40,159 nt of DNA from an uncultured Enterobacterales bacterium (GCA_964556105.1 CAZKWG010000002.1:1-40159); one strand, 5' to 3'; positions 21,240 to 37,479 are shown, counted from the first letter of the stretch. Made by a program: numbers and translations. The notes: generated by a model not told the origin, from the letters alone.

Positions 21240-21286
21240 CCTGGGTCTCCTGGGGAGAGATCCGCGTAGACGGCCGATCCTGCTCC

Positions 21287-21301
21287 TGGCACAGGTCTTG
21301 C
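21287..21301 (+). promoter_or_regulatory. Sigma-54 (-24/-12) promoter of the porin gene
   Basis: cTGGCACaggtcTTGCt is a perfect match to TGGCAC-N5-TTGC. It lies 33 nt upstream of the ATG at 21334. Confidence 0.75.
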
Positions 21302-21333
21302 TTTCCCGTGAGTCACCTCACGGAGAAAGAACG

Positions 21334-22470
21334 ATGGTCCTGCCGCTGTACCTCCTCACCGCCCACGCCGCCCTGGCCGCCGACGCCGCTGGCGACAAGC
21401 CGCTTACCCTCGGGCTGAGCTTTCAGCCCCGCCTCACGGCGACCTTGAACGGCGACCCGGACAGCACCGACGCCGACGCCGTCAGCGACGCCGGCCTGCG
21501 CGTCCGCCGCATGCTGGTCACGGCGAGCGGGACGATGGCCGAGCGCGTCGACTACCGCTTCCGCATCGACGCCGCCCGCGCGTTCACCTTCAACGACCTG
21601 GACGGCAAGAGCCAGCAGGCGACGAGGCCCCTGCTGGACGACGCGCAGCTCGTGCTGAAGCTGGCCGACCCGCTGAAGATCTCGGCGGGCCAGTGGAAGG
21701 TGCCGTTCACCGCCTCGCGGATGATGAGCGACACGACCCTGCTCTTCCCCGACCGGCCCCTGCCGCTGGACGGAGCGAAGTACGGCGACCTCAAGCTGAC
21801 GGGCTTCGACTGGTCGCGCGACGCGGGCTTGGCGCTGCTGGGCGATCTTGGCGAGAAGCGGCTGGAGTACGCCCTGGGCGCGTTCGGCGGGGACGGTCAG
21901 AACGTCTGGCCCACCACCGACGAGGCGCCGCTGTGGGTCGCGCGCCTCGCCCTGGCGCCGCTGGGGGAGCTCAAGTACGACGAGGTCGATTTTGTGCGAG
22001 GCGCGCCGAAGCTGGCCGTTGGGCTGGGCGCCACGCTGGAGCGCACCCCTCTCTACGACGAGGCCGAGGCGCTGAGCGGTCATGTCTCCGACCTGCGCGC
22101 CAGCGCCGACCTGCGCTTCGCCGTCGCGGGGCTCTCGCTGAACGCCGAGGCGATCTACGGGCAGCTCGGGGCCGAGGGCGCCGATCCGACCCGCAGCCTG
22201 GGGGCCTACGGGCAGCTCGGCTACTTCCTCCCGGTCGGCCTGGCGCCCGGCCTGCGCTGGGCTCGTCTGGATCCCTCCCTGGACGCCGAGGATGACGGCC
22301 TCACCCACCTGGAGGCCGTGCTGAACGCCTACCTGCCCGACCCGGCGAAGGAGGGCGCCACGCTCGGCCACAAGGCGCAGCTCCAGCTCGCCTGGACCAC
22401 GGCCCTTCAGGACGGGCTCGACCGCCCGCTCTACCACCAGGTCCAGCTCGCGACGGCCGTCGGGTTCTGA
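21334..22470 (+). CDS. Anion-selective outer-membrane porin (OprO/OprP 'phosphate-selective porin O and P' family-like)
   Basis: The ATG at 21334 follows GGAG (21322-21325). The signal peptide is MVLPLYLLTAHAALA. The sequence has a beta-strand alternation pattern, GQWKVPFTASRMMSDTTLLFPDRP resembles the family motif, and the C-terminus ends in an aromatic residue (...TAVGF). Confidence 0.65.
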   Translation: MVLPLYLLTAHAALAADAAGDKPLTLGLSFQPRLTATLNGDPDSTDADAVSDAGLRVRRMLVTASGTMAERVDYRFRIDAARAFTFNDLDGKSQQATRPLLDDAQLVLKLADPLKISAGQWKVPFTASRMMSDTTLLFPDRPLPLDGAKYGDLKLTGFDWSRDAGLALLGDLGEKRLEYALGAFGGDGQNVWPTTDEAPLWVARLALAPLGELKYDEVDFVRGAPKLAVGLGATLERTPLYDEAEALSGHVSDLRASADLRFAVAGLSLNAEAIYGQLGAEGADPTRSLGAYGQLGYFLPVGLAPGLRWARLDPSLDAEDDGLTHLEAVLNAYLPDPAKEGATLGHKAQLQLAWTTALQDGLDRPLYHQVQLATAVGF

Positions 22471-22474
22471 CCGA

Positions 22475-22517
22475 ATCCGTGATCCCGTCACGGAAAATCC
22501 GTGTTCCCGGGTGATCC
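22475..22517. promoter_or_regulatory. Candidate upstream activator sequence 2: TCCGTGA-TCCCG-TCACGGA with flanking ATCCGTG / GTGATCC repeats
   Basis: The 19-mer at 22476-22494 is itself a 7-bp-arm inverted repeat. ATCCGTG recurs at 22475 and 22497. GTGATCC recurs at 22479 and 22511. The element is centred about 80 bp upstream of the -24 GG. Confidence 0.5.
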
Positions 22518-22563
22518 TGCGCCACACGCCAGGAAGAACCTCAGGTTCTGCCGTGCCATGCCC

Positions 22564-22578
22564 TGGCACGCATCTTGC
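22564..22578 (+). promoter_or_regulatory. Sigma-54 (-24/-12) promoter of the sulfate ABC transporter operon
   Basis: cTGGCACgcatcTTGCt is a perfect TGGCAC-N5-TTGC. It lies 37 nt upstream of the ATG at 22615. Confidence 0.75.
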
Positions 22579-22614
22579 TTACTATGCCGCGGCCCCTGCC
22601 GCAAAGGACCCTCC

Positions 22615-23646
22615 ATGCTGCGATTCCTGCTCCCCCTCTTCATCGGCTGCGGCGCGTCCCCGGACGAGCCGGCTGCGCCCGCGACCGCTTCGACCCCCGC
22701 CGCGGTCACCCGCACCCTGACCCTCGCCGCCTACACGACGCCGCGCGAGGCGTACGGCAAGGCGATCCTGCCGGCCTTCGCGCGCCACTGGAAGGAGAAG
22801 ACCGGCGAGGACGTGACCTTCGAGGAGTCCTACCAGGGCTCCGGTGCCCAGGCGCGCGCCGTCAAGGAGGGCTTCGAGGCCGACGTCGTCGCCCTCTCGC
22901 TCGACCCGGACGTGGACGTGCTGGCGAAGGCGGGCCTGATCACCCACGACTGGCGGGCGGCGGGCGCGGGCGGGATGGTCACCCAGTCCATCGCCGTCAT
23001 CGCCGTGCGACCGGGCAACCCGAAGAAGATCCTGGACTGGCCGGACCTGGCGCGGGCGGACGTGGACGTGCTCACGCCCAACGTGCGCACCAGCGGCGGC
23101 GCGATGTGGAACGTCCTGGCGCTCTGGGGGGCCGCCACACGCGGCTTCGCTGGGAACAAAGCGGGGGATGGCGCGGGGGCCGAGAAGCTGCTGGGCGGCG
23201 TCCTCGCGCGGGTCAGCGTCATGGACAAGGGCGCCCGCGAGAGCATCGTGAACTTCGAGAAGGGCGTCGGCGACGCGGCGATCACCTACGAGAACGAGGT
23301 GCTGGTGGCGAAGCAGGAGGGCCAGGCCATGGACTACGTGGTCCCGCCGTCCACCATCCTCATCGAGAACCCCATCGCCGTCGTGGACGTCTACGCGAAA
23401 AAGAAGGGCAACGAGGCGCTGGCGAAGGCCTTCGTGGACTTCTGCCAGGGCCCCGAGGCGCAGAAGGCGTACGCCGAGTACGGCCTGCGCCCGGTTGACC
23501 CCGCCTTCGTCCCGGCCACCCTGCCGAAGCCCACCGATCTGTTCACCATCCGCGACCTGGGCGGCTGGGATACCGTCAAGACGGACGTCTTCGGCGCGGG
23601 CGGCGCCTACGACCGCGCGGCGGGCGACGCGGGCGCACCGCGGTGA
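22615..23646 (+). CDS. cysP: Sulfate/thiosulfate ABC transporter periplasmic binding lipoprotein
   Basis: The internal ATG at 22615 gives lipobox LFIGC. It aligns by eye to E. coli Sbp/CysP blocks: SYQGSGAQARAV..GFEADVVALSL, VRPGNPKKILDWPDL, LTPNVRTSGGAMWNVLALWG. Confidence 0.9.
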   Translation: MLRFLLPLFIGCGASPDEPAAPATASTPAAVTRTLTLAAYTTPREAYGKAILPAFARHWKEKTGEDVTFEESYQGSGAQARAVKEGFEADVVALSLDPDVDVLAKAGLITHDWRAAGAGGMVTQSIAVIAVRPGNPKKILDWPDLARADVDVLTPNVRTSGGAMWNVLALWGAATRGFAGNKAGDGAGAEKLLGGVLARVSVMDKGARESIVNFEKGVGDAAITYENEVLVAKQEGQAMDYVVPPSTILIENPIAVVDVYAKKKGNEALAKAFVDFCQGPEAQKAYAEYGLRPVDPAFVPATLPKPTDLFTIRDLGGWDTVKTDVFGAGGAYDRAAGDAGAPR

Positions 23647-24443
23647 GGGGATCCTGGCTGCTCCGCGGGGCCGTCGCGGCCTGGATCGGGCTCCTCGTGG
23701 GCCTGCCGGCCGTCGTGCTCGTCCTGCGCGGGCTCGAGGGCGGCGTGGACGGGCTGGTCGCCGTCTTCGCCTCGAGCACGGCGCGGGCGGCCCTCTCGCT
23801 CTCCTTGTGGACGGCGCCGCTGGCGGCGCTGGTCAACGGGGTGGCGGGCACGGCGATCGCCTGGGCGCTGGTGCGCTGGGATCTCCCCGGTCGGCGCGCC
23901 CTGGCGGCGCTGGTCGACCTGCCGCTGGCCATCCCGACCCTGGTGGCGGGCATCCTGCTGGTCGCCCTCTTCGGCCCGCAGACGGCGCTGGGCGGCTGGT
24001 TCATCGCCCAGGGTTGGCCCATCGCCTTCGCGAAGCCGGGCATCGTGCTGGCCCTGCTCTTCGTGACCCTGCCCTTCGTCGTGCGCGCGGTGGAGCCGGT
24101 GCTCGAGGAGCTGGACCCGGCCGAGGAGGAGGCCGCCTGGACCCTCGGCGCGGGCCGCGGGATCACCTTCCTGCGCGTGCTCCTGCCGCCCGTGCTGCCG
24201 GCCGTCGCCGCGGGGATGGTCCAGACCTTCGCCCGCTCGGTGGCCGAGTTCGGCTCGCTGGCGGCGGTCTCTGGGAACATCCCGCAGCGCACCCTGGTCA
24301 TGCCGGTGTGGATCCTCGGCGAGGTGGAGGCGGGCAACGTCTCCGGCGCCGCCGCGGCCAGCGTGATCCTGCTGGCCCTCGCCCTGGTCCTGCAGCCCCT
24401 CTCCGCCGGGCTCGCCCGCCGCGCGGGAGCCGGCCGTGGGTAG
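23643..24443 (+). CDS. cysT: Sulfate ABC transporter permease CysT (CysU)
   Basis: 266 aa with 6 TM helices. The EAA-like loop is EEAAWTLGAGRGITFLRVLLP, followed by FARSVAEFGSLAAVSGNIP. The GTG start overlaps the binding-protein stop (GTGA). Confidence 0.9.
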   Translation: MRGSWLLRGAVAAWIGLLVGLPAVVLVLRGLEGGVDGLVAVFASSTARAALSLSLWTAPLAALVNGVAGTAIAWALVRWDLPGRRALAALVDLPLAIPTLVAGILLVALFGPQTALGGWFIAQGWPIAFAKPGIVLALLFVTLPFVVRAVEPVLEELDPAEEEAAWTLGAGRGITFLRVLLPPVLPAVAAGMVQTFARSVAEFGSLAAVSGNIPQRTLVMPVWILGEVEAGNVSGAAAASVILLALALVLQPLSAGLARRAGAGRG

Positions 24444-25242
24444 CCGCCGACGCAGCCCGGATCGCCTCAGCCGCGCCGTGCTCGCGCTCATCGGGCTGTA
24501 CATCGGCCTGCTGCTGCTGGTCCCGCTGGGCGCGCTCGCGCTGGAGGTGCTGCGCAACCTCGGCGAGGTGGTCAGCGAGCTCTCCCGCGAAGAGGCGCTG
24601 AACGCGCTCGGGCTCTCGGCCGCGGTGGCGGCGGCCTGCGTCCTGCTGAACGGCGTCTTCGGGGTGGCGGGCGCCATCGTCCTCACCCGTCACCGCTTCC
24701 TCGGGCGGCGGCTGCTGGACGCGCTCGTCGATCTGCCGCTGGCCCTCTCGCCCGTCATGACCGGCCTGGCCTTCCTCCTGCTCTTCGGTCGCAGCGGGAT
24801 CCTCCGCCCTGTATTGGACGCTGTACAGTTCAAGGTGGCCTTCGCCTGGCCGGGCGTGCTGCTGGCCACGCTCTTCGTGACCCTGCCGTTCACGCTGCGC
24901 GAGGTGGCGCTGGTGCTGGCCGAGCTGGGCGACAGCGAGGAGCAGGCCGCCGCGACCCTCGGCGCCTCGCCGTGGCAGACCTTCTGGCTGGTCACCCTGC
25001 CGAACATCCGCGGCGGCCTCGTGCTGGGCACCACGCTGACCCTGGCGCGCGCGCTCGGCGAGTTCGGCGCCGTGCTCGTCCTCGGCGGGTCGGTGGCCAA
25101 CGACACCCAGACCGCCACCACCTTCATCCACGCCGCCGTCGAGGAGCGTCAGGAGCCCGCCGCCTTCGGCATGGCCCTCATCCTGGCCGCCGCCGCGGTG
25201 GCCCTGCTCTACGTCCTCTCGTCCCGCCGGAGCCCCTCATGA
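24436..25242 (+). CDS. cysW: Sulfate ABC transporter permease CysW
   Basis: 268 aa. It has EEQAAATLGASPWQTFWLVTLPNIR and LARALGEFGAVLVLGGSV. It overlaps cysT by 8 nt. Confidence 0.9.
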   Translation: MGSRRRSPDRLSRAVLALIGLYIGLLLLVPLGALALEVLRNLGEVVSELSREEALNALGLSAAVAAACVLLNGVFGVAGAIVLTRHRFLGRRLLDALVDLPLALSPVMTGLAFLLLFGRSGILRPVLDAVQFKVAFAWPGVLLATLFVTLPFTLREVALVLAELGDSEEQAAATLGASPWQTFWLVTLPNIRGGLVLGTTLTLARALGEFGAVLVLGGSVANDTQTATTFIHAAVEERQEPAAFGMALILAAAAVALLYVLSSRRSPS

Positions 25243-26267
25243 GCATTCGCGTCTCCCAGCTCGTGAAGTCCTTCGGCGCGGTGCGCGTCGTAGACGACGT
25301 CAGCTTCGAGGTCGGCGCCGGAGAGCTGGTCGCCCTGCTCGGACCCTCCGGTGGCGGAAAGAGCACGATCCTGCGCGTGATCGCCGGGCTGGAGACGGCG
25401 GACGCGGGCGAGGTCTGGCTGGACGGCCGCCGCGTGGACGGCCTCGTGGCCCGCGAGCGCGGGGTGGGCTTCGTCTTTCAGCACTACGCCCTCTTCCGCC
25501 ACATGACCGTGAGCCAGAACATCGCGTTCGGGCTGGCCGTTCAGGGCGTCGGCAAGGCGGCGCAGCGCGAGCGCGTCGAGGCGCTGCTGGAGACCATGGG
25601 CCTGCGCGGCCTGGGCGATCGGTACCCCTCCCAGCTCTCCGGCGGTCAACGTCAGCGCGTCGCCCTGGCCCGCGCCCTGGCGCCCAGGCCCGCCCTGCTG
25701 CTCCTCGATGAGCCGTTCGGCGCCGTGGACGCCAAGGTGCGCGAGGAGCTGCGGCGCTGGCTGCGCAAGCTGCACGACGAGGTCCACACCACCTCCATCT
25801 TCGTCACCCACGATCAGGAGGAGGCCTTCGCCATCGCCGACCGCGTGATGATCATCCAGTCCGGTCGGCTGGAGCAGGCCGGGCCGCCGGCGGAGATCCT
25901 CGATCATCCGGCCACCGAGTTCGTCGCGCGCTTCGTGGGTGAGGTCAACGTCCTGGACGGCCTGGTCCGCGAGGGCCGCGCCTGGGTGGGCCCGCTGGCG
26001 GTGCCGGTGGAGGGCTTCGTCGATGGCCGTCGCGTGCGCGTCGTCGTGCGCGCCTACGACTTCCGCTTCTGGAAGGATCCGCTGGGCGTCGCCACGGTGG
26101 AGCGCCTGCTGCCGCTCGGCGACCGGGTGCGCGTCGAGGCGCGGCTCGACCAGGGGGAGCCCCTCTTCGCGCAGTTCCCGCGCCGGTCCTCGCTGCTGGA
26201 CGGCGTCGCCCCCGGCGTGCGCGTCGGCGTGGAGGTCGCCCACGCGCGCGTCTGGCCGGCGCAATAG
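25239..26267 (+). CDS. cysA: Sulfate ABC transporter ATP-binding protein CysA
   Basis: The ATG at 25239 overlaps the cysW stop (ATGA). It has Walker A GPSGGGKST, signature LSGGQRQRVALARAL and Walker B LLLLDEPF, plus a C-terminal TOBE-like regulatory domain. Confidence 0.92.
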   Translation: MSIRVSQLVKSFGAVRVVDDVSFEVGAGELVALLGPSGGGKSTILRVIAGLETADAGEVWLDGRRVDGLVARERGVGFVFQHYALFRHMTVSQNIAFGLAVQGVGKAAQRERVEALLETMGLRGLGDRYPSQLSGGQRQRVALARALAPRPALLLLDEPFGAVDAKVREELRRWLRKLHDEVHTTSIFVTHDQEEAFAIADRVMIIQSGRLEQAGPPAEILDHPATEFVARFVGEVNVLDGLVREGRAWVGPLAVPVEGFVDGRRVRVVVRAYDFRFWKDPLGVATVERLLPLGDRVRVEARLDQGEPLFAQFPRRSSLLDGVAPGVRVGVEVAHARVWPAQ

Positions 26268-26276
26268 GGGGAGGAT

Positions 26277-27785
26277 GTGAATTCGCCTGCCGTCATCCCG
26301 CCCGAGCTGCTCACCGAGGTGTGGCGCGAGGTCTGCCGCCACCTGGACATCGAGGAGTCCGCCCGCGGCCTGCTCACCCTGCTGCGCCCCCACCTGCGGC
26401 TCGAGCACCTGATCGTCCGCCGCTGGGACGCCGAGCGCCTGCGCCTGGACACCGTGGCCTCGGCCGGCGGCGGCGCCTGGATGGACGGGCTGGGTGCGCG
26501 CAGCGACCTGAGCGGCCCGCGGCGGGACGAGCTGCTGCGCTGGGCCGCCGCGGGGAGCTCCAGCGCCTGGCGCGGGCGCGAGCAGGACACCCTGGCGCGC
26601 GCGCTGGTGCCGGAGGGTGTCCCCGGTCCAATCACCGTCGGGCCCCTGCTGGAGGGCGGCGTCCTGGTCGGCGTGCTTGTGGTCGGCCTGGGCGGCCAGG
26701 ACGGACCTCGACGGACCGACGCCCTGCTGGAGCCCTTCGCCGCCGCGCTGGCCAACGATCACCGCCTGCACGAGCTGAGCCGCCTGCGCGAGGCCGCCGA
26801 GCAGGATCGGGCCGCCCTGCTCTCCCGCCTGGCGCGCCAGGACGTCTCTGACGCCATCGTCGGCGCCGAGGCCGGGCTGGCCTCCGTCATGGCGCGGGTC
26901 GATCAGGTCGCCCCCACCGACGCGCCCGTGCTCATCCTCGGCGAGACCGGCTCCGGCAAGGAGGTGGTCGCCCGCGCCGTCCACGCCCGCTCGCGCCGCG
27001 CCTCGGGGCCCTTTCTGCGCGTCAACTGCGGGGCGATCCCGCCCGAGCTCATCGACAGCGAGCTGTTCGGGCACGAGCGGGGCAGCTTCACCGGCGCGGT
27101 CAACCTGCGCAAAGGCTGGTTCGAGCGCGCCGACGGCGGCACCCTCTTCCTGGACGAGGTGGGCGAGCTGCCCGCCGCCGCCCAGGTGCGCCTGCTGCGC
27201 GTGCTGCAGGACGGCAGCTTTCAGCGCGTCGGCGGCCAGAGCTCGCACACGGTGGACGTGCGCATCGTCGCCGCCACCCACCGCGACGTCACCACCATGG
27301 TCCAGCAGGGGCAGTTCCGCCAGGACCTGTGGTATCGCATCAGCGTGTTTCCGGTCACGCTCCCCACGCTGCGGCAGCGTCGGGGCGACATCCCCGCGCT
27401 CACCCGCCACTTCTCGGCGCGGGCCGGTGAGCGTCTCTTCGGGCGCGCCCTACAACCCACGGTGGAGGACATCGCGCTGCTCCAGGGCTACGACTGGCCC
27501 GGGAACGTGCGCGAGCTGGCCTCGGTCATCGAGCGCGCCGCCATCCTCGGCGGCGGCCGCACCCTGGACGTGAGCACCGCGCTGGGACCAGGGGTCAGCC
27601 TCGGGCCGGCCAGCCGGGGCCCCGACGAGCGGGAGCAGATCCTGGACGCCTTGAAGAAGACGCGCGGGCGCATCGAGGGCCCCTTCGGCGCGGCGAAGCT
27701 GCTCGGCGTCAACCCCCACACCCTGCGCTCGAGGATGCGGCGCCTCGCCGTGGAGTGGTCGGAGTTCCGCAAGGGCGAGGGCTGA
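26277..27785 (+). CDS. Sigma-54-dependent transcriptional activator (GAF sensor - AAA+ sigma-54 interaction domain - Fis-type HTH); no receiver domain
   Basis: 502 aa. It has Walker A GETGSGKEVVARAVH, the sigma-54 contact loop DSELFGHERGSFTGA, the FLDEVGEL Walker B, and the C-terminal HTH AAKLLGVNPHTLRSRMRRL. The N-terminal ~170 aa look GAF-like. The start is uncertain: GTG at 26277 lies 9 nt after the cysA stop, and the SD spacing is short. Confidence 0.9.
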   Translation: MNSPAVIPPELLTEVWREVCRHLDIEESARGLLTLLRPHLRLEHLIVRRWDAERLRLDTVASAGGGAWMDGLGARSDLSGPRRDELLRWAAAGSSSAWRGREQDTLARALVPEGVPGPITVGPLLEGGVLVGVLVVGLGGQDGPRRTDALLEPFAAALANDHRLHELSRLREAAEQDRAALLSRLARQDVSDAIVGAEAGLASVMARVDQVAPTDAPVLILGETGSGKEVVARAVHARSRRASGPFLRVNCGAIPPELIDSELFGHERGSFTGAVNLRKGWFERADGGTLFLDEVGELPAAAQVRLLRVLQDGSFQRVGGQSSHTVDVRIVAATHRDVTTMVQQGQFRQDLWYRISVFPVTLPTLRQRRGDIPALTRHFSARAGERLFGRALQPTVEDIALLQGYDWPGNVRELASVIERAAILGGGRTLDVSTALGPGVSLGPASRGPDEREQILDALKKTRGRIEGPFGAAKLLGVNPHTLRSRMRRLAVEWSEFRKGEG

Positions 27786-27825
27786 GGTCGCGGCCGGCGC
27801 CCGCGGGCCAGGATAGGGCGCCACT

Positions 27826-28209
27826 GTGACGAGGCTCCTCTCCATCCTCCTGGCCGGCGGGCTCGGCAGCGTCGCGCGCTACCTGGTCACGACCGGGCTG
27901 GCGGCGACCCTGGGGCCGGCGCTCCCCTACGGCACCTTCGCCGTGAACCTGCTCGGCTCGGGGCTGATGGGGCTGCTCTTTGCGCTCGTGGGCGCGGCGC
28001 CGGCGAACGGCCCCACCCTGGCGCTGGTGCTGGGCACGGGCTTCCTCGGCGGGTTCACGACGTTCTCGGCGTTCAGCCTGGACACCTTCCGGCTGGTGCA
28101 GGAGGGGTCGGCGGGGACGGCCTTCGCCTACGCGGCGGCGACGCTGGCCGGCTGCCTGGGGGCGACGGCGCTCGGGTTCATGCTCGGGCAGCGGATCGTT
28201 GCGGGCTAG
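27826..28209 (+). CDS. crcB: Fluoride ion channel CrcB/FluC
   Basis: 127 aa with 4 TM helices. GGLGSVARYLV and GFLGGFTTFSAFSLD are signature blocks. Confidence 0.9.
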   Translation: MTRLLSILLAGGLGSVARYLVTTGLAATLGPALPYGTFAVNLLGSGLMGLLFALVGAAPANGPTLALVLGTGFLGGFTTFSAFSLDTFRLVQEGSAGTAFAYAAATLAGCLGATALGFMLGQRIVAG

Positions 28210-28214
28210 ATTAA

Positions 28215-28757
28215 CTAGCCTGCATCTTCGCCCGCCAGCTCCTCCTCCTCGCGCGTGCCGCTGCGCTCATGGCACCAGGCGCAGCTCGTCTGCCCGCACT
28301 CCGGGCGCGGCTGGCGGCGGACCAGCATGACGGGGACCTGGGCGTGGCGGGCCACCTCCTCGGCGACGCTGCCCAGCACGGCGCGGGCGACGCCGGTGCG
28401 GCCGTGGGTGCCCATGAGGATGAGGTCCGCCTGAAGCGCCTCCGCCTCGCGCTGGATGGTGGGGGCGACGGGGCCGGCGTGGACGACCAGCTGGGGGTCG
28501 GTGGCGCCGTGGGCGCGGGCGATCTCGGCGAAGGGGCGCATGCGCTCCAGCGCGCCGTGCTCGGCCCAGGCCCGCGCGCTCATCGACTGGCCCTCGTGCT
28601 GCACGATGGCGCTGGCGCTCAGGCCCTCGGGCAGCTCGGCGACGTGCAGGAGGGTGACGCGCGCCCCGGTCTGGCGAGCCAGCTCCCCGGCGCCGCCCGC
28701 GACCTGGAGCGAGCAGGTGGAGAAGTCCACAGGGACGAGGATGTGATGGATCTCCAT
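28215..28757 (-). CDS. Universal stress protein (UspA family) with Cys-containing acidic C-terminal tail
   Basis: 180 aa. It has ILVPVDFS...LLHV...LILMGTHGRTGVARAVLGSVAEEVARHAQVPVMLVR. The tail is ECGQTSCAWCHERSGTREEEELAGEDAG. Confidence 0.85.
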   Translation of the reverse strand: MEIHHILVPVDFSTCSLQVAGGAGELARQTGARVTLLHVAELPEGLSASAIVQHEGQSMSARAWAEHGALERMRPFAEIARAHGATDPQLVVHAGPVAPTIQREAEALQADLILMGTHGRTGVARAVLGSVAEEVARHAQVPVMLVRRQPRPECGQTSCAWCHERSGTREEEELAGEDAG

Positions 28758-28773
28758 GGCGGACTCCTGAGGT

Positions 28774-29211
28774 TCAAGGGTTGGTTCTGGCCGCGCGACG
28801 CGCCTCGACCAGGTGGTGAAGCCCCATGCCGCCCAGCATGGCGCCGACGAAGATCAAGGTCGGGGTGGCGCCCGAGACGGCGGCGGTGATCGCCGGCCCC
28901 GGGCAGTAGCCGCCCAGCCCCCAGCCCGCGCCGAAGAGGACCGCGCCGCCCAGCAGGCGGCCATCGACGTCCTTGCGCGTGGGCAGGGCCCAGTGGTCCG
29001 CCATCAGCGGCGCGCGCAGGCGGGGCACCAGCCGGTAGGCCAGGAAGTGGACGGCGATGGCGCCCACCATGACGAAGGCCAGCGAGGGATCCCAGAGGCT
29101 GTCCACGGTCAGGAAGCCCAGCACCTTGTCGGGGCGGGTCATGCCCGAGACCACCAGCCCCAGGCCAAAGATCGTGCCCGCGAGCAGAGAGACGAGGTTC
29201 GAGCGGCTCAA
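28774..29211 (-). CDS. YeeE/YedE-family sulfur-compound transporter half-protein (DUF6691-like)
   Basis: 145 aa with 4 TM helices. It has GLVVSGMTRPDKVLGFL and GAGWGLGGYCPGPA with the conserved Cys. The TTG start overlaps the upstream stop (TTGA) and is preceded by GGAGG. Confidence 0.8.
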   Translation of the reverse strand: MSRSNLVSLLAGTIFGLGLVVSGMTRPDKVLGFLTVDSLWDPSLAFVMVGAIAVHFLAYRLVPRLRAPLMADHWALPTRKDVDGRLLGGAVLFGAGWGLGGYCPGPAITAAVSGATPTLIFVGAMLGGMGLHHLVEARRAARTNP

Positions 29212-29642
29212 GACGCACCTCCACCGAAGAGGGAGACCAGGGTCGCGACCAGGAAGCCGACGCCCATGAAGGTGATCACGCTGGCCAGCGAGCGCGGGCT
29301 GAGGCGGGAGAGCCCGCAGACCCCGTGGCCGCTGGTGCAGCCGTTGCCGAGGCGCGTGCCGTAGCCGACCAGCAGCCCGGCGATGACCAGCTGCGCGGTG
29401 GAGCGGTCGGTCACCACGGCGAGGCTCTGGGGCGCCAGCAGGCTCGCGCCGAGGCCGGCCAGCAGCAGCCCGGCGATGAAGGCGCCCCGCCAGCCCAGGT
29501 CGCCGGGCTTCGGGGTCAGCAGGCCGCCGACGATGCCGCTGATCCCGGCCACCCGACCCTGGACCAGGAGCATCACCGAGGCGGAGAGGCCGATCAGGGC
29601 GCCGCCGAGGGCCGCGGGGATGGGAGAGAAGTCTGGGGACAT
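29208..29642 (-). CDS. YeeE/YedE-family sulfur-compound transporter half-protein
   Basis: This is the C-terminal portion of track ORF 29208..31058. It has GRVAGISGIVGG and GTRLGNGCTSGHGVCGLSRLS (conserved Cys motifs). I chose the start at 29642 (MSPDF...); 29654 (MERHMSPDF) is also possible. Confidence 0.8.
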   Translation of the reverse strand: MSPDFSPIPAALGGALIGLSASVMLLVQGRVAGISGIVGGLLTPKPGDLGWRGAFIAGLLLAGLGASLLAPQSLAVVTDRSTAQLVIAGLLVGYGTRLGNGCTSGHGVCGLSRLSPRSLASVITFMGVGFLVATLVSLFGGGAS

Positions 29643-29674
29643 GTGCCGCTCCATCCGTGAGGTTCGGGGGAGAA

Positions 29675-30415
29675 TCAGGCTTGCTGATAGAGGACGAAGG
29701 CCGCCATCATCAGGACGAAGGTGGCGAAGCCGCGCCGCAGGGCGGCGGGCGGGATCTTGTTGGCCAGGGCGCCGCCGAGGACCGAGCCGAGGACCGCGGC
29801 GGTGGAGATCATCGCTGCCAGCTGCAGGTCTACCTCGACGTGCCCCATGTGTCCGGCGAAGCCGGCGAAGCTCTTCATGGCGATGACCAGCAGCGAGGTC
29901 CCGATGGCCAGCGTCATGGGCAGTCCGCCCAGCAGCGCCAGGGCGGCGACCACCAGGAAGCCGCCGCCCGCGCCGACCAGGCCGGTGACCACGCCCACCA
30001 CGAGGCCGTCCACGACGATCTTCCAGGGCTTCATCCCCTGCGTCGCCTCCGCCGTCGGCTCCTTGCGCCCGCGGAACATGGCCAGCGAGGTGGCGATCAT
30101 CATCAGCGCGAAGAGCACCATCAGGACGTTGGCGGGGACGAGCGCGGCGAGCTTGCCGCCGCCGAAGGCGCCGACCATGCCGGCCGCGCCGAAGATGAGC
30201 CCGATCCGCCAGGAGACGTTCCCGGCCCGCGCGTGCTGGGCCAGCCCGGCCAGCGAGGTCACGCCGACCACCAGCAGGGAGGTGGCGATGGCCGTCTTGG
30301 GCTCCATCCCGAGCGCGTAGACCAGGATGGGGGTGGTGAGGATCGAGCCGCCGCCGCCGAGCAGGCCGAGCGCGACGCCGATGAGGACTGAGAGCACCAG
30401 GGCCAGCGGGAGCAT
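29675..30415 (-). CDS. TauE/SafE (DUF81) family sulfite/organosulfonate exporter-type permease
   Basis: 246 aa with 7-8 TM helices. GLLGGGGSILTTPILVYALGM is the family N-terminal motif. The ATG is preceded by GGAGG. Confidence 0.85.
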   Translation of the reverse strand: MLPLALVLSVLIGVALGLLGGGGSILTTPILVYALGMEPKTAIATSLLVVGVTSLAGLAQHARAGNVSWRIGLIFGAAGMVGAFGGGKLAALVPANVLMVLFALMMIATSLAMFRGRKEPTAEATQGMKPWKIVVDGLVVGVVTGLVGAGGGFLVVAALALLGGLPMTLAIGTSLLVIAMKSFAGFAGHMGHVEVDLQLAAMISTAAVLGSVLGGALANKIPPAALRRGFATFVLMMAAFVLYQQA

Positions 30416-30457
30416 GGGACCTCCGTGGGGCGGGGAGCGCCCACGGTGACCACATTT

Positions 30458-30472
30458 GCAAGACCCGTGCCA
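30458..30472 (-). promoter_or_regulatory. Sigma-54 (-24/-12) promoter of the tauE-yeeE/yedE-usp operon
   Basis: The minus strand reads tTGGCACgggtcTTGCa, a perfect TGGCAC-N5-TTGC. The -12 element lies about 43 nt upstream of the ATG at 30415. Confidence 0.7.
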
Positions 30473-30588
30473 ATCTTAGAATGGCCGCGTTCAACCATCG
30501 GATGTGGCGAAAGCTCCCCCCCCGAGCGGGTCGAGGAGCGCTCCAGGCGTGCCGATATGAGGCGACACGTCGCGACGTCTTGCGACGC

Positions 30589-31049
30589 CAGGCCGCGCTC
30601 AGCCCGTCAGCCAGCTCAGCAGCTCGGGCAGGGCCAGGGCCAGGGTCGCGTCGTCCATCGTCTCCAGCGCGAAGCCCACCGTGATCACCCGCCGCGCGTG
30701 GATCACCGCCGCCGCGCCGCCCGTGTCGTAGGACCAGATGGTCTCCTCCCCCGAGAGCACGTCCGGGTAGTCCTCTTCGTAGGTCACGCCGAAGGTGTAG
30801 GCGCCCGCGACCACGCTGCCGGCGTCGTCGGAGACGTAGGCGGCGTGCAGGTTCTCGGCGAGCCAGGTCGGGTCGGTGGCGTAGCCCAGCTCGGCGCCGC
30901 TGATGATCAGCTTCCCGCCGGCCGCGAGGTGGGCGGCGATCAGGCTCCGCTCGGTCGCGTCCAGGGTGGTGTCCGCGCTCGACTCGTCGCCGAGCAGCCA
31001 GATCACGCCCGCGTAGTCGCTGAGCAGGACGTCGCCGCGGATGACCGCC
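30589..31049. repeat. Direct repeat copy A (461 bp), near-identical to 32667-33127
   Basis: By-eye alignment at a constant offset of 2078 bp found one mismatch (31028 G versus 33106 C, synonymous in the minus-strand frame). Confidence 0.95.
30599..31049 (-). pseudogene. 5'-truncated duplicate of the last 150 codons of the 682-aa lipoprotein gene (32677..34725)
   Basis: The translated sequence ...VIRGDVLLSDYAGVIWLLGDESSADTTLD...LPELLSWLTG is identical to the C-terminus of the downstream gene. Homology stops abruptly at 31049, and there is no plausible start or signal peptide. Confidence 0.85.
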
Positions 31050-31146
31050 GACGACCACGTCTCCTATGAGGACCGCGTCCTGTTCCCGTACCTTCGCGGC
31101 CAGCTCCCGGCGCTCGCGCCGACTCCACCCCCAGTTGCAGGCGAGG

Positions 31147-31530
31147 GGGCAGACGGGGTCGGTGACCGCGACGCAGAGACCTGGCTCAGCCCAAACCGGT
31201 CTGGAGGACCTAAACCTCCATTTCCACTCGATCTTTCTGGACGGATGCTACGCGCGCGATCCACAGGGCAGACCGCGATTCCGGCCCGTGACGCCGCACA
31301 CGTCCGACGTGGAGAAGCTGCTGGTGGAGATCGCCATCGCCTGCGAGGACTGGCTGTCGAAGTCCGGCTTCGCCCCGGTCTGGAGGACCCGACGACGACG
31401 TGTCGGATCTGGACGACGATGGCCTGGGCCTGTTCCAGGCCGCGGCGGCGGCCGGGTACTCGGCGGTGCGGGGCGTGCCGACCCCTGTGGCACGGCGGGT
31501 GCAGGTGATCCGGGGAAAAGAGCTGGAGAG
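31147..31530 (+). mobile_element. Degenerate internal fragment of an IS91-family (HUH rolling-circle) transposase gene
   Basis: GSVTATQRPGSA...LNLHFHSIFLDGCYARDPQGRPRFRPVTPHTSDVEKLL resembles the IS91-family block around the HUH motif (G.VT.IQRFGS.LNLN.HFH.L.LDGVY). After a frameshift near 31380 the similarity continues as DDDGLGLFQAAAAAGYSAVRG...ARRVQVIRG. The N- and C-terminal parts of the transposase are absent. Confidence 0.45.
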
Positions 31531-31705
31531 GGAGAGCTGTACCACCTCGCGTTCGACATCGCAGAGATAGAGCACGGTAACATCAACGTCGAGCCCGAAG
31601 CGGAGGGGTGGATGCACCTCGTCGTCGAGGGAGATCTGAGCTCTGGCCACCTGGAGGGTTCGGCGTCTACGGATATCATCTCCTACTTCACTCAGGAGCC
31701 GACCG

Positions 31706-32068
31706 GTGAACGAGCAGAGATCATCGCGCAGGCCTTCAACAAGCTCCCTTTCACTCACTGAAACCACACCCTGTTCCCACAGCTCGCTGGCCCTGCCGCG
31801 CGGGCTGCTCCTCGCCCTGACCTTCGTCCTGGGGTGCGCCGAGGACCCGACCGTGTGTGACTGGGTCGAAGGGGAGTTCTGCTATCAGTGTAACGATGGC
31901 GCCGTCACCTGCACCTACGACGGCGTCTCGGTGACGACCGAGGCCTGCGACGGCTGCCAGACCCGACTCGCGCTCTTCGACGAGCTGTGCGCGATGGGCC
32001 GAACCGAGAGCCGCGCGGAGGTCGATGCGTCGATGGTGTGTGAGCCCGCCGACACGGGCGCGGAGTAG
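31706..32068 (+). CDS. Small Cys-rich putative lipoprotein (orphan)
   Basis: GC3 is high. The signal-like segment LLLALTFVLGC contains a lipobox. The roughly 75-aa mature part contains 8 Cys. The start is uncertain: GTG at 31706 gives a long N-terminal region, and the 5' end may be disrupted. Confidence 0.35.
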   Translation: MNEQRSSRRPSTSSLSLTETTPCSHSSLALPRGLLLALTFVLGCAEDPTVCDWVEGEFCYQCNDGAVTCTYDGVSVTTEACDGCQTRLALFDELCAMGRTESRAEVDASMVCEPADTGAE

Positions 32069-32079
32069 CCGGCCCCGCC

Positions 32080-32643
32080 CTACTCCTCCGCCCCGAACTC
32101 CGGGTAGCAGATCGCCACGCTCCCGCTGACCACCCAGAACCGGAACCCCGCCTCACCGCCGCCGCGGTGGGTCATGCGAACGTCCAGCGGGTAGACGCCG
32201 GACCGGATGGAGACCGTCTGGTTCTCCGGGGCGAAGGTCTCCGTGGCCTCCACGCTGGCGATCACCTGGTCGTCCAGCAGCACCCAGCCGTCCGTGGTCG
32301 CGCCCAGCGCCAGCACCACGTCCCCGCTGGACAGCGCCCGCAGCCAGGCCGTCCAGCGCACCGAGAAATAGCCCGGGTTCTCCGCCAGATCCTCGTCCAC
32401 CGGCCACCAGTTCTCGCCGAACACCAGGCTCGTGTCGTAGCGCTGGAAGGCCAGGTCCCCGGCCTCCCACAGCGGCGCTGTCAGCGGGTCGAGGTCCGAC
32501 AGCTCCAGGCCCTGTTCCGCCTCGGCGCCAGGCGCGTTCACGCCACGCGGGCGGTCCCGCACCGCGAGCGCCTCGCCGTTCAAAAAGCCGAACCGACGAG
32601 AGCTCGCGCGCCGCGACCTCGGACGCTGGGCGACACGTCGCAA
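32080..32643 (-). CDS. PA14-like domain protein, probably a 5'-truncated fragment
   Basis: YFSVRWTAWLRALSSGDVVLALGATTDGWVLLDDQVI...GVYPLDVRMTHRGGGEAGFRFWV matches the PA14 pattern (FSVRWTG...DDG..L.IDG...G.YPI.V.Y....G.A...L.W). There is no signal peptide. The N-terminal 30 aa look non-native, and the ATG lies inside the 32630-32661 hairpin. Confidence 0.45.
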   Translation of the reverse strand: MRRVAQRPRSRRASSRRFGFLNGEALAVRDRPRGVNAPGAEAEQGLELSDLDPLTAPLWEAGDLAFQRYDTSLVFGENWWPVDEDLAENPGYFSVRWTAWLRALSSGDVVLALGATTDGWVLLDDQVIASVEATETFAPENQTVSIRSGVYPLDVRMTHRGGGEAGFRFWVVSGSVAICYPEFGAEE

Positions 32644-32661
32644 AAGGGTGCGACGTGTCGC
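32630..32661. repeat. Perfect 12-bp-stem inverted repeat GCGACACGTCGC-N8-GCGACGTGTCGC
   Basis: Read directly from the sequence. It sits 6 bp outside the left end of repeat copy B, between the stop of the 682-aa gene and the PA14-like ORF. Confidence 0.8.
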
Positions 32662-32666
32662 GACGT

Positions 32667-33127
32667 CAGGCCGCGCTCAGCCCGTCAGCCAGCTCAGCAG
32701 CTCGGGCAGGGCCAGGGCCAGGGTCGCGTCGTCCATCGTCTCCAGCGCGAAGCCCACCGTGATCACCCGCCGCGCGTGGATCACCGCCGCCGCGCCGCCC
32801 GTGTCGTAGGACCAGATGGTCTCCTCCCCCGAGAGCACGTCCGGGTAGTCCTCTTCGTAGGTCACGCCGAAGGTGTAGGCGCCCGCGACCACGCTGCCGG
32901 CGTCGTCGGAGACGTAGGCGGCGTGCAGGTTCTCGGCGAGCCAGGTCGGGTCGGTGGCGTAGCCCAGCTCGGCGCCGCTGATGATCAGCTTCCCGCCGGC
33001 CGCGAGGTGGGCGGCGATCAGGCTCCGCTCGGTCGCGTCCAGGGTGGTGTCCGCGCTCGACTCGTCGCCGAGCAGCCAGATCACGCCCGCGTAGTCGCTG
33101 AGCAGCACGTCGCCGCGGATGACCGCC
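32667..33127. repeat. Direct repeat copy B (461 bp), part of the intact 682-aa lipoprotein gene
   Basis: See copy A for the alignment. Confidence 0.95.
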
Positions 33128-34725
33128 TCGTTGCTGGCCACGGAGAAGGGCTGCCCCAGCCCGACGCCGACGCGCGCGGCGAAGTCGTGGGTCGGGCTGC
33201 GATAGCTGCCGTCCAGCACGCGGTCGAAGCCGTCCACGACGAGCCAGCTGCTGCCCGTGCCGCCGTAGACATCGGAGGGCGCCGAGGTCCCGAGCTCGGG
33301 CGAGAGCTGCCGCACGCGGATCCAGGGCCGCGCCTCGACCGTGCCCGCGCTGACGCCCGCCCCCGCCGCGTCGTCCACCTGCGTCAGCGAGGCCCAGGTC
33401 ACGCCGTCGGTGGAGCCCTCCACGAGGATGGTGGGCGAGGACGGGGCGCGGTCGTTCCGCCAGGTCACGGTGGCCTGAGCGCCGTCCGAGACCACCGAGA
33501 GCAGCTCCGGCGGCGCGAAAGGTGAGCGTGGGAGCCCGCTCTGGGCCAGCCAGCGGGCGTAGGCCCGGCTCTCGTACAGGCAGCCGGAGTGGGTGGACGA
33601 GGAGGGGCCGATGCTCAGGTCGCTGGTCGCCAGGCTGTCATCGTCGAAGCTCGCGCTGACGGTGTAGCCCTCGGCGGCGAGATCGGCGGCGAGGTCCTGG
33701 TTGTCGTCGTCCGTGCCGCCCGTGCTCGTGTAGACCGAGCGCAGGAGCCCGCCGCCGCGGACATAGTCCTTGTAGGTCCCCGCCTTGGCGTAGAGGGCGT
33801 CGAAGAGGTGGACGCCTTGGATCTCCGCGCCTCGATCGTCGAGGATCGCCGCGGTGCACAGGTAGCCGCCGGAGTGCGCGCTGATCACCTGCGCTCCCGC
33901 CTGTGGGCGCAGCACGAGCCCGTCGCGGTAGAGCACCGACAGGGCGTCGCGGATCAGCGTGGCGTGGGCGCCGGGCTCCATCAGGCGGCCAAAGTCGCCG
34001 CTCGCCGCCTCCACCGGGCCCTGCGGGACGACGAGGATCGCGTCCCGCCCCGAGAGGGCGTGCTGCTCGACGAGGAGCTGCGCGCTCACCACCTCTGAGA
34101 GGGTCGCGTTGTGGCCGTGGATGTGGGTCACCACGCCCACCTCGCCCTGGTCGGAGAGCCCCTCGGGCACGAAGATCAGCACGCTCCCGTCGGTATAGGG
34201 CGCGTCCTCGTAGGGGAAGGGCGCGGAGGGCAGGGTGACGACGGTGCGGGCGCCCCAGGTGTCCTCCTCCCAGACGGCGTCGCGCAGGAGCGGATCGCCG
34301 ACGACGGCGACCAGCGCGACGTCTACGGACTGGCCATCGACGGTGACCGTGACCGCGCCCATCTCGATGGCCGGCGCGTCGGGGTCGCCTGTGTAGCTGA
34401 CCTCGAAGCTGCGCGCCTCGTAGCTGGAGAGCGGGCCTGTGTCGCCGGAGATCTCGAAGGCCCCCGACACCTCGAAGCTGACCTTGCCCCCGGACCCGCC
34501 GCCGCCCACCTCGCGGATCTCGAAGACCCCAGGCTCCGGGTCCTGGCCGGCCGTGACATAGGGCAGGTCGGCGAGCTCGTCGGCCTGCAGCAGGAAGGCG
34601 TCCGAGCCCTCGCCCTCGGCCTCACCCTGGCGGGTGTCGTCGTTCTTGTCGCGCTTGCAGCCCAGAGCAGGAAGCAGTGTGAGGCTGAACAGGTGTGCGG
34701 TAGTGAGCCAGAGCGCTGCTTTCAT
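32677..34725 (-). CDS. Large lipoprotein with putative alpha/beta-hydrolase-like core, FN3-like segment and a conserved C-terminal domain; function unknown
   Basis: 682 aa. The signal peptide has lipobox LPALGC. It contains HIHGHNA...VISAHSGGY (a GxSxG-like nucleophile elbow; inference), TVTWRNDRAPSSPTILVEGSTDGVTW (FN3-like), and the C-terminal VIWLLGDESS...GGKLIISGAELGY. Confidence 0.75.
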   Translation of the reverse strand: MKAALWLTTAHLFSLTLLPALGCKRDKNDDTRQGEAEGEGSDAFLLQADELADLPYVTAGQDPEPGVFEIREVGGGGSGGKVSFEVSGAFEISGDTGPLSSYEARSFEVSYTGDPDAPAIEMGAVTVTVDGQSVDVALVAVVGDPLLRDAVWEEDTWGARTVVTLPSAPFPYEDAPYTDGSVLIFVPEGLSDQGEVGVVTHIHGHNATLSEVVSAQLLVEQHALSGRDAILVVPQGPVEAASGDFGRLMEPGAHATLIRDALSVLYRDGLVLRPQAGAQVISAHSGGYLCTAAILDDRGAEIQGVHLFDALYAKAGTYKDYVRGGGLLRSVYTSTGGTDDDNQDLAADLAAEGYTVSASFDDDSLATSDLSIGPSSSTHSGCLYESRAYARWLAQSGLPRSPFAPPELLSVVSDGAQATVTWRNDRAPSSPTILVEGSTDGVTWASLTQVDDAAGAGVSAGTVEARPWIRVRQLSPELGTSAPSDVYGGTGSSWLVVDGFDRVLDGSYRSPTHDFAARVGVGLGQPFSVASNEAVIRGDVLLSDYAGVIWLLGDESSADTTLDATERSLIAAHLAAGGKLIISGAELGYATDPTWLAENLHAAYVSDDAGSVVAGAYTFGVTYEEDYPDVLSGEETIWSYDTGGAAAVIHARRVITVGFALETMDDATLALALPELLSWLTG

Positions 34726-36771: not shown

Positions 36772-37479
36772 CTAACGCCCGCTCCACCAGAGCAGCCCGC
36801 CGAGGACGGCCGCGAGCGGTGAGAGGACCAGGAGCCAGGCGATGAGGTTCAGGACGAAGAGCCCACGCTTGACGGTCGCCGTGTCGTTGACGTGCGGGAA
36901 GGGCTCGGCAGGCACGGGCACGCCGAGGAAGGCGCAGAGCGGCGCCCAGCCCTGGCTGGCCTCGAAGACCAGCAGGCGATCGGGCGGCACCTCGCGCTTC
37001 ACCGCGTCCAGGTGGGCGCGAAAAACGGCGAGGGCATGTGCCTTGTCTTCGAAGCGCCCATCGAAGGTGCGCTCCCAGACCAGGCGCTTCGCCATGTCCG
37101 TGGCCGGGCCGACCCGCGGGAGCCAGGGCAGCACGAGGCGCAGCGGGAACATCGAGACGGGCTTGAAGATGGTCTCGCGGCAGCTCTGGTACCAACGCTC
37201 CGGGTCGCGCACGCTCAGGATCACCCGCGCGTCGGGGTGGGCGGCGAAGATCTCCTTGTAGAAGCTGCAGGCGGGCCAGTCTACCGAGGCCCCCCAGCCC
37301 GTGAAGAAGGCCGCCCAGTCCACGCGCTCACCGCGCGTCGCGGCGTCCCAGGTCGCGACGTGCGCGGGGTGCGCCATGACCTCGGTCATGTGGTAGCAAG
37401 GCCCCAGGCCCAGCTTCTCCAGCGCCACCTTGAGGGTGAGCGTGCCCGTGCGGCCAAAGCCCGCGCCGATGACCTTCAT
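36772..37479 (-). CDS. Sulfotransferase-family protein (Sulfotransfer_4-like) with C-terminal TM helix
   Basis: 235 aa. MKVIGAGFGRTGTLTLKVALEKLGLGPCYHM is the PAPS 5'-phosphosulfate-binding loop region typical of this family. The C-terminal segment is FVLNLIAWLLVLSPLAAVLGGLLWW. Confidence 0.75.
   Translation of the reverse strand: MKVIGAGFGRTGTLTLKVALEKLGLGPCYHMTEVMAHPAHVATWDAATRGERVDWAAFFTGWGASVDWPACSFYKEIFAAHPDARVILSVRDPERWYQSCRETIFKPVSMFPLRLVLPWLPRVGPATDMAKRLVWERTFDGRFEDKAHALAVFRAHLDAVKREVPPDRLLVFEASQGWAPLCAFLGVPVPAEPFPHVNDTATVKRGLFVLNLIAWLLVLSPLAAVLGGLLWWSGR

Follow-up and report, generated by a model that had tools for sequence, protein, structure and literature searches.

Background and relation to known systems

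Sulfur permeases of the TauE and YeeE/YedE types occur in operons that handle sulfide and persulfide, and in the studied proteobacteria these operons are under separate regulators. In one of these, pdo-sqr-tauE, the sigma-54 activator is FisR, and another, yeeE-yedE-pdo2, is controlled by BigR (PMC7315123); FisR has also been listed as a sensor of reactive sulfur species of the bacterial enhancer-binding protein (EBP) type (PMC12754779). YeeE/TsuA is a thiosulfate importer, and PmpA and PmpB are half-size YeeE proteins, with one essential-type cysteine each, which have been proposed to form a heterodimer (PMC11582611). Here we examine a locus in a 40,159-bp stretch of DNA from an uncultured bacterium (GCA_964556105.1, CAZKWG010000002.1:1-40159), the whole of which we call the window. 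In it a predicted sigma-54 promoter faces a tauE gene, two genes for half-size YeeE/YedE permeases and a universal stress protein (Usp) gene. As an earlier reading of the sequence, hereafter the original prediction, placed two further sigma-54 promoters in the window, we refer to this one as promoter 3. Our literature search found no description of such a module in myxobacteria; as a described combination, and for the phylum, it is new, but the principle is an established one.

The FisR regulon (Cupriavidus pinatubonensis JMP134; Acinetobacter baumannii A1S_1707-1711) resembles this locus in bringing together a sigma-54 promoter, a dedicated EBP and a sulfide/persulfide operon with TauE (PMC7315123), and in relatives of the window locus, too, the operon includes a persulfide dioxygenase gene and an EBP is encoded divergently. 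However, the FisR operon, pdo-sqr-tauE, has neither YeeE halves nor a Usp, and the operon in the window is without an adjoining EBP, persulfide dioxygenase, sulfide:quinone oxidoreductase (SQR) or rhodanese gene and without a recognisable enhancer. The EBP of the relatives has a PAS-like sensor; a CPxGVVC cysteine pair in the sensor domain of two of these EBPs (loci L156 and L158) is at most suggestive of the FisR type.

The same permease set is found in PmpABC of Serratia sp. ATCC 39006 and in the BigR/PigS operons (bigR-blh of Xylella and Agrobacterium, yeeE-yedE-pdo2 of A. baumannii), which share with the window locus two YeeE/YedE halves of ~130-145 aa, one conserved cysteine in each, and an association with persulfide dioxygenase (PMC11582611, PMC7315123). 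The BigR/PigS operons are repressed by ArsR-family persulfide sensors, unlike the operon considered here, in which sigma-54 control is predicted, tauE comes first in the transcript and Usp is a fixed fourth member. BigR/PigS operons use sigma-70-type promoters, and the Serratia PmpC protein is TauE-like. TsuA (YeeE) with TsuB (Escherichia coli; structure from Spirochaeta thermophila) and SoxT are likewise members of the YeeE/YedE superfamily, and the halves have cysteine motifs matching those that TsuA needs (PMC11582611). The window has two separate halves, probably of a four-helix type, whereas in TsuA and SoxT one chain of 330-350 aa contains nine helices and three cysteines. TsuA, for which thiosulfate import has been demonstrated, also needs a TusA-like partner, whereas the window operon has no TusA-like gene.

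A sigma-54 promoter box in front of the tauE operon

The box and the four genes that follow it are these:

30457-30473, minus strand: sigma-54 -24/-12 promoter box, tTGGCACgggtcTTGCa, with GG at 30471-30470 and GC at 30459-30458
29675-30415, minus strand: tauE, TauE/SafE (TSUP) anion permease, 246 aa (PF01925, E 3.5e-50)
29208-29642, minus strand: half-size YeeE/YedE permease (PmpA/B-like), 144 aa (PF04143 Sulf_transp, 35.3 bits, cutoff 27)
28774-29211, minus strand: second half-size YeeE/YedE-type permease, 145 aa (PF20398 DUF6691, 151.8 bits, E 1.9e-44)
28215-28757, minus strand: usp, universal stress protein, 180 aa (PF00582, E 3.2e-34, 118.9 bits)

The minus-strand sequence from 30473 to 30457 is t-TGGCAC-gggtc-TTGC-a, its 15-nt core occupying 30472-30458, and the GG-GC spacing is exactly 10 nt within TGGCAC-N5-TTGCW, as in sigma-54 promoters. 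The box is intergenic, faces tauE and is kept in orthologous loci; the distance from the C of TTGC (30458) to the A of the tauE ATG (30415) is 43 nt, so that the perfect box and the spacing given in the original prediction can be read directly. Dinucleotide shuffles of the 40,159 bp led us to expect 0.06 exact matches to TGGCAC-N5-TTGC, and four were observed (at 5969, 21287, 22564 and 30458), an excess of about 70-fold; none of 100 shuffled windows had more than one. The earlier argument that three flawless boxes are very unlikely by chance thus holds in substance, the boxes being real, although the count has to be raised to four, with the additional box at 5969-5983 on the plus strand. A sigma-70 scan gave no sigma-70-like site directed toward tauE; a match at 30455-30482 on the plus strand is the reverse of the promoter 3 region, points away from the operon and was set aside. 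A scan of 27700-32800 against Rfam (E <= 1) found no riboswitch or leader family, the single match being a spurious microRNA.

Related loci were collected through a scan of reference genomes, a scan of metagenomes, and the contigs of TauE homologues with 73-82% identity. All loci in which tauE stands beside two YeeE halves are of high G+C content and Myxococcota-like. In each of 13 further lineages the first gene of the module is preceded, at a distance of 27-72 nt, by a -24/-12 box, although the DNA around the boxes does not align between loci. A relaxed box is expected 0.021 times per 85-nt upstream window and was found in 13 of 13 scored loci, to which L159 and L160 add two more. As a negative control, actinobacterial TauE homologues (~60% identity) have neither the box nor adjoining YeeE halves. 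The boxes of the related loci are:

L152: TGGCACgggtcTTGC
L001 and L151: TGGCACagggtTTGC
L153: GGGCACagttgTTGC
L154: TGGCACcgccgATGC
L159: TGGCACgccccCTGC
L156: GGGCACggcgcTTGC
L157: TGGCACggcggTTGC
L158: TGGCACatcccTTGC
L160: TGGCACgggtgTTGC
L002 and L081: TGGCATacatcCTGC
L019: TGGCACgccgcTCGC
L074: TGGCACaagggTTGC (TGGCAC-N5-TTGC)
L130: TGGCACgggcgTTGC (TGGCAC-N5-TTGC)
L088: TGGCATggaggGTGC

The gene order tauE-Sulf_transp-DUF6691-usp is kept in L001, L151, L152, L153, L154, L156, L157, L160 and the P0028 contig with differing flanks, which argues for a single transcription unit that includes Usp; we regard this as strong indirect evidence for co-transcription of the four genes. The recurrence of box and gene order in 13 further lineages also bears out the claim that a real sigma-54 promoter heads these genes. 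Taken together, we give a probability of roughly 0.7 to the reading that the element at 30472-30458 on the minus strand is a working-type sigma-54 (RpoN) promoter at the head of the four-gene operon. What the sequences show is the box and its conservation, the families of the genes, the layout of the operon and its setting in relatives; the transcription start, sigma-54 dependence, identity of the activator, inducing signal, substrates and direction of transport we infer for this operon.

The genes of the operon

The intergenic gaps, in order from tauE to usp, are 32, -4 and 16 nt, and with the Pfam matches they agree with the original description of four genes with short gaps or overlaps encoding TauE, two ~145-aa halves and a USP. 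All four open reading frames (ORFs) are intact, with a G+C content at third codon positions (GC3) of 0.94-0.97 (0.97 in tauE). TauE scores 171.3 bits against PF01925 (cutoff 32.6), covers model positions 2-235 of 237 and shows many hydrophobic segments in a hydropathy scan. The first half-permease has the cysteine motif GNGCTSGHG and a second cysteine in VCGL, and the second has the motif GGYCPGP and begins with a TTG inside a 4-nt TTGA overlap with the preceding gene. This start is supported by the hidden Markov model match, which begins at residue 6, and the 4-nt overlap of the halves is present wherever it was measured (L151-L154). A crude hydropathy scan marks 3-4 hydrophobic blocks in each half. 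Two adjacent genes for proteins of ~130-145 aa, each homologous to one half of YeeE and with a conserved cysteine in a YeeE-type motif, are what characterizes the PmpA/PmpB type, and the two halves probably form a PmpA/PmpB-like heterodimer.

The Usp has the nucleotide-binding motif G-x2-G-x9-GS, in the form GTHGRTGVARAVLGS, and matches USP structures in the PDB, as expected of the ATP-binding UspA type. Its C-terminal tail, ECGQTSCAWCH (CX4CX2CH, within 28215-28310 on the minus strand), is kept in L001, L151 and L153, and as CX4CX2C in L154; judged from the sequence, the tail may respond to metals or to redox state, or it may serve in docking. An acidic ...AExxG closes every Usp linked to the module. 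In L074 (9525-9539, minus strand) and L130 usp lies outside the tauE operon and is divergent from it, behind a perfect sigma-54 box of its own and together with a GST-like gene, with TGAAAC sites between the two divergent promoters.

The operon meets a convergent crcB gene (PF02537; 27826-28209, plus strand) at its end, where a palindrome was read directly from the sequence:

28204-28220, no strand: palindrome GGCTAG-ttaat-CTAGCC

Each arm contains one TAG stop, that of usp or that of crcB, and the two stops are 5 nt apart. The palindrome is likely the operon end; a terminator scan found no U-tract terminator after usp.

RNA from the locus was encountered in a biofilm metatranscriptome (X19), in which two contigs are 100% identical to 30160-30264 and 30291-30431, and nothing else from 21000-31100 was found there. 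The second fragment ends at 30431, 15 nt inside the predicted leader and short of the predicted start. Thus, tauE is expressed somewhere, and the RNA is compatible with a start near 30446, while it says nothing on sigma-54.

The module in relatives and its link to persulfide

In L156, L157, L160 and the P0028 contig the operon is longer and reads rhodanese-tauE-half-half-usp-(DUF202)-metallo-beta-lactamase (MBL)-fold protein, and in L158 the order is tauE-half-half-MBL-rhodanese. The MBL-fold protein of L156 (233 aa) matches PDB 4ysb at 1.4e-83 and the human ETHE1 persulfide dioxygenase at 6.5e-72. Further genes vary between loci: the L157 operon adds a SoxA/TsdA-type cytochrome c, the module of L160 adjoins DsrE, DUF302 and a second rhodanese, and that of L153 adjoins a CDO_I/FAD-oxidoreductase gene. 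No SQR was seen in the module of the relatives. These neighbours indicate that the company of the module is persulfide and sulfite chemistry and not sulfate assimilation. We also considered whether TauE might be a sulfate importer like CysZ of Corynebacterium glutamicum, but found no support for this, since the sampled actinobacterial homologues adjoin persulfide dioxygenase-rhodanese fusions and YgaP-like rhodaneses, not cys genes.

Judging by analogy, we hold it as probable as the promoter assignment itself that promoter 3 belongs to a FisR-like sulfide/persulfide-handling module and not with the sulfate-uptake promoters of the window. In correction of the original interpretation, the relatives tie this module to persulfide and sulfite handling and not to the neighbouring sulfate-uptake regulon.

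Enhancer and activator

TGAAAC/GTTTCA hexamers are rare in these genomes (~2.4e-4 per nt). They stand in every relative at 79-123 nt upstream of the GG, in many cases in the form GTTTCA-N4-TGAAAC. Representative enhancers are:

L160: GTTTCAttatTGAAAC
L157: GTTTCAaccaTGAAAC
L154: GTTTCAccggTGGAAC

In five loci from four lineages a PAS-type EBP is encoded near the module: L002/L081, L156 (5910-7259, minus strand) and L158 have its gene directly divergent, while in L019 and L020 it is close by. The EBPs of L156, L158 and L002 share 55-81% identity over their full length, including the sensor domain, and they share ~45% identity with the EBP of the window in the AAA+ core only. The latter protein (26277-27785; PF00158, 233 bits) is the only EBP found in the 40 kb; its gene follows cysA, and the presence of an EBP gene suggests that the genome has sigma-54.

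Promoters 1 and 2 have an enhancer of another kind. The boxes at 21287 and 22564 (plus strand) each lie ~100 nt downstream of CCGTGATCCCGTSACGGA, and TCCGTGATCCCGTSACGGA occurs in the window only at 21208 and 22476 even when 3 mismatches are allowed, so that promoter 3 is without the enhancer of promoters 1 and 2, as had been noted originally. At promoter 2 the window and L001 have the CCGTGA-N5-TCACGG enhancer in perfectly conserved form, and CCGTGA...TCACGG is absent upstream of the module in the loci searched (the window, L001, L151-L154, L156-L158, L002, L019 and L074). Given the different enhancer and the different EBP in relatives, the most likely regulator of the class to which promoter 3 belongs is a PAS-type EBP, which in this genome would be encoded outside the window, and not the cysA-linked EBP. 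The suggestion of a different activator for promoter 3 has thereby gained support from the TGAAAC/GTTTCA enhancer and the PAS-type EBP of the relatives.

In L152, L001 and L151 the stop codon of the upstream gene is followed by a GTCGCGAC(GT/AC)GTCGC palindrome and this, directly, by a single TGAAAC. The corresponding features in the window are:

30549-30556, minus strand: ATCGGCAC where L152, L001 and L151 have the TGAAAC half-site; alignments and a hexamer scan show no consensus hexamer
30561-30588, minus strand: remnant of a GTCGCGAC-type palindrome after the stop of the upstream gene, shared with copy B of a duplicated segment (32630-32666), L001, L151 and L152

The promoter 3 palindrome is centred near -126 and travels with the end of the upstream gene. 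Its folding is not above that of shuffled sequences (z -0.42), as against z -3.9 in copy B and -3.4 in L001. As an enhancer candidate it was rejected because it goes together with the upstream gene: in copy B, where there is no promoter, it likewise comes after the intact gene, and there and in L001 it folds like a terminator; from its sequence the GTCGCGAC-type palindrome appears terminator-like.

The 5' untranslated region

The predicted 5' untranslated region (UTR) contains the 7-bp-arm inverted repeat that the original prediction had placed there:

30423-30446, minus strand: 5'-UTR hairpin CCGUGGG-N10-CCCACGG

The hairpin begins at the predicted start (~30446, placed by its spacing from the -12 element), and its 3' arm enters the Shine-Dalgarno (SD) sequence GGAGG (30424-30420). 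The folding of CCGTGGG-N10-CCCACGG is not above shuffles (z = -1.34). L152 has the same hairpin design, its fourth pair having changed in a compensatory way from U-A to A-U (CCGAGGG/CCUCGG); L001 and L151 have a different hairpin covering the SD, and more distant loci have little or none there. When the half-sites of the promoter 1/2 enhancer were sought near promoter 3 at variable spacing, the one match was CCGTG-N14-CACGG, the 5'-UTR hairpin itself. Since L152 keeps the pairing but not the sequence, the repeat was read as an RNA structure and not as an EBP site. With low confidence we suggest that it is a lineage-specific mRNA structure, which may protect the 5' end and partly mask the SD.

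The duplication upstream of promoter 3

The following elements lie upstream of the promoter:

30589-31049, minus strand: copy A of a 461-bp direct repeat, equal to 32667-33127 with 1 mismatch
31141-31365, plus strand: fragment of an ISCR/IS91-family transposase, 75 residues (NCBIfam NF052416, E 2.4e-5, model 174-248 of 509)

The junction originally set at 30589 is where the near-perfect repeat starts, and weaker similarity continues through the palindrome to ~30561. The repeat is the 3' end of a gene for a secreted-type protein of 682 aa (32677-34725), and in L001, L151 and L152 a gene of this type abuts the tauE promoter directly, with no insertion. Between the repeats lies a 1.6-kb insert with a PA14-like ORF (32080-32643, minus strand), the ISCR/IS91 fragment and a small Cys-rich ORF; Pfam gave no match for the ORFs of 31041-32068. 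This small ORF (~31780-32068, plus strand) is lipoprotein-like. Within the insert the G+C content drops to 66%. The ISCR fragment has tblastn matches in 4363 plasmid records; an annotated plasmid among them showed no informative feature. Unitigs from two independent metagenomes span both repeat junctions, so that the arrangement is not an assembly artefact. The window occurs in the biofilter runs X1 and X2.

It had been proposed that the rearrangement altered the region upstream of promoter 3. For the promoter 1/2 element this does not hold, as the comparison with the relatives that lack the insertion shows: L001, L151 and L152 are also without CCGTGA...TCACGG, and its absence is thus ancestral and was not caused by the rearrangement. 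For the TGAAAC half-site the proposal is compatible with what we see, since every lineage but that of the window has the hexamer. The site that is missing falls 5-12 nt outside the duplicated segment, and it is possible that the duplication caused its loss, a point mutation being an equally good explanation of the sequence.

A proposed mechanism

According to the reading that we favour, sigma-54 holoenzyme would bind the -24 GG/-12 GC box as a closed complex, an ATP-hydrolysing EBP would open the promoter complex, and transcription would start from ~30446. A single mRNA would then carry tauE, the two half-size YeeE/YedE genes, which would be translationally coupled, and the usp gene for an ATP-binding-type protein. 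We read the locus as a trimmed copy of a rhodanese-tauE-half-half-usp-persulfide dioxygenase module that is widespread in Myxococcota-like genomes. There the module has the same kind of promoter and, some 80-120 nt upstream, an enhancer of the GTTTCA-N4-TGAAAC type, and the gene of a PAS-type EBP is often its neighbour. If FisR and BigR/PigS are a guide, the module would handle sulfite, thiosulfate or sulfane sulfur derived from sulfide or persulfide, and the most likely role of TauE, by the same analogy, is to export sulfite or thiosulfate. As the enhancer consensus has been lost beside a mobile-element duplication, activation in this genome may be weak or rewired.

Several observations weigh against this reading. 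The rpoN gene is absent from the 40-kb window, as are genes for a rhodanese, a persulfide dioxygenase and a PAS-type EBP, no such EBP adjoining promoter 3. Because these partners are missing, it is through orthology alone that the locus is linked to the persulfide module. Where EBP sites would be expected (~70-150 nt upstream), and indeed within 220 nt upstream of the box, the window has neither TGAAAC/GTTTCA nor CCGTGA...TCACGG, and in lacking the former it is the sole exception among the 14 lineages. Furthermore, the RNA evidence consists of two short unstranded contigs. Finally, the sole EBP of the window is the cysA-linked one, which could be the regulator given that its orthologue lies near the module in L153.

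Alternative explanations

This last point leads to an alternative in which the window holds one sulfur regulon, the EBP of 26277-27785, which presumably serves promoters 1 and 2, activating promoter 3 too and the operon importing alternative sulfur sources such as thiosulfate or sulfite under sulfate starvation. This EBP is the only one in the window, its gene lies 2.7 kb from promoter 3 and is convergent with the operon, and YeeE/TsuA does import thiosulfate (PMC11582611). The linkage is kept in L001, and in L153 the C-terminus of the orthologous EBP lies 2.1 kb from usp despite different intervening genes. But CCGTGA-N5-TCACGG, which is kept at promoter 2, precedes promoter 3 neither in the window nor in any of the searched loci, and in relatives the module adjoins a different enhancer and a different EBP and travels with persulfide dioxygenase and rhodanese, not with sulfate-assimilation genes. 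We regard a single regulon as unlikely on this balance. In L153 (4045-6458) the EBP orthologue is followed by a sigma-54 box, TGGCATgggacTTGC (6055-6069, minus strand), which precedes a 52-aa ORF and a CDO_I/FAD-oxidoreductase fusion gene and is convergent with the tauE operon.

A variant with a comparably low probability is enhancer turnover, in which the box was kept, the ancestral GTTTCA/TGAAAC was lost beside the ISCR-associated duplication and the operon was drawn into a sigma-54 sulfur-homeostasis network with the sulfate ABC transporter and the porin of promoters 1 and 2. If true, the regulator of this network would be an EBP whose 190-aa sensor domain is unclassified, and it would stand in for the usual CysB-type control.

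It is about equally doubtful that promoter 3 has been orphaned, its ancestral box intact but its enhancer lost beside the ISCR-associated duplication, leaving the operon silent or served only by read-through or cross-talk. The window alone of the 14 lineages lacks the hexamer, with ATCGGCAC replacing the TGAAAC of L152, L001 and L151, the duplicated palindrome ends 5-12 nt from this gap, and the palindrome at promoter 3 has lost the folding of copy B (z -0.42 against -3.9). On the other hand, the -24/-12 box is still a perfect consensus, the four ORFs are intact with high GC3, and tauE RNA fragments exist in the metatranscriptome. Moreover, the closest relatives themselves keep only one half-site, which suggests that the requirement for the enhancer may be loose.

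That the box is a chance consensus match without function, the genes being read from another promoter, is highly improbable: high-GC genomes are rich in GG...GC pairs and the window has 18 relaxed sigma-54 boxes, but the exact 10-base match is expected only 0.06 times per window, the box stands at the same place in 13 other lineages with non-aligning flanks, and there is no sigma-70-like site toward tauE.

Other features of the window

The box at 21287 precedes a Porin_O_P-like gene, and that at 22564 precedes a sulfate ABC transporter consisting of a substrate-binding protein, CysT, CysW and CysA (NCBIfam TIGR00971, TIGR00969, TIGR00968). The N-terminal 190 aa of the EBP encoded downstream of cysA match no Pfam family and no PDB sequence. 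The region 21208-27785 (plus strand) corresponds to 14161-20735 of L001, with the box and enhancer of promoter 2 conserved, promoter 1 having been checked for the box only. From this arrangement, sigma-54 may control sulfate uptake here in place of a CysB-type regulator. In the leader of promoter 1 (21306-21323, plus strand) CCGTGA-N6-TCACGG stands directly before the Shine-Dalgarno sequence. Its half-sites are those of the enhancer upstream, and it may act either as an RNA hairpin or as a protein site downstream.

The fourth perfect box, at 5969-5983, lies in the gap 5882-6274, ~290 nt before a gene for an MFS_1_like transporter (6275-7435), and two of the three TGAAAC/GTTTCA hexamers of the window (5490 and 6049) are near it. 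The neighbourhood contains further sulfur-related genes, for a sulfotransferase (PF17784) and a sulfatase (PF00884), at 36772-39072 (minus strand); they stand 6-9 kb upstream of the operon, and L001 and L151 show synteny here. In its remaining part the window looks myxobacterial, to judge by a G+C content of 72% and by genes for a Ser/Thr kinase, an FHA protein and proteins with FG-GAP/MopE repeats.

Implications

With this analysis, what would have been listed as four "hypothetical transporter / stress protein" genes receives a secure annotation. The comparison across loci indicates that a conserved module for reactive sulfur species, driven by sigma-54, is present in uncultured Myxococcota-like bacteria. 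This module joins TauE and PmpAB-type halves, which are under separate regulators in the studied proteobacteria, and includes a Usp. It would offer a tractable test case for the cargo of TauE and PmpAB and for the sensing of sulfur by a PAS-type EBP, with the window providing a natural enhancer-less variant for comparison with its relatives.

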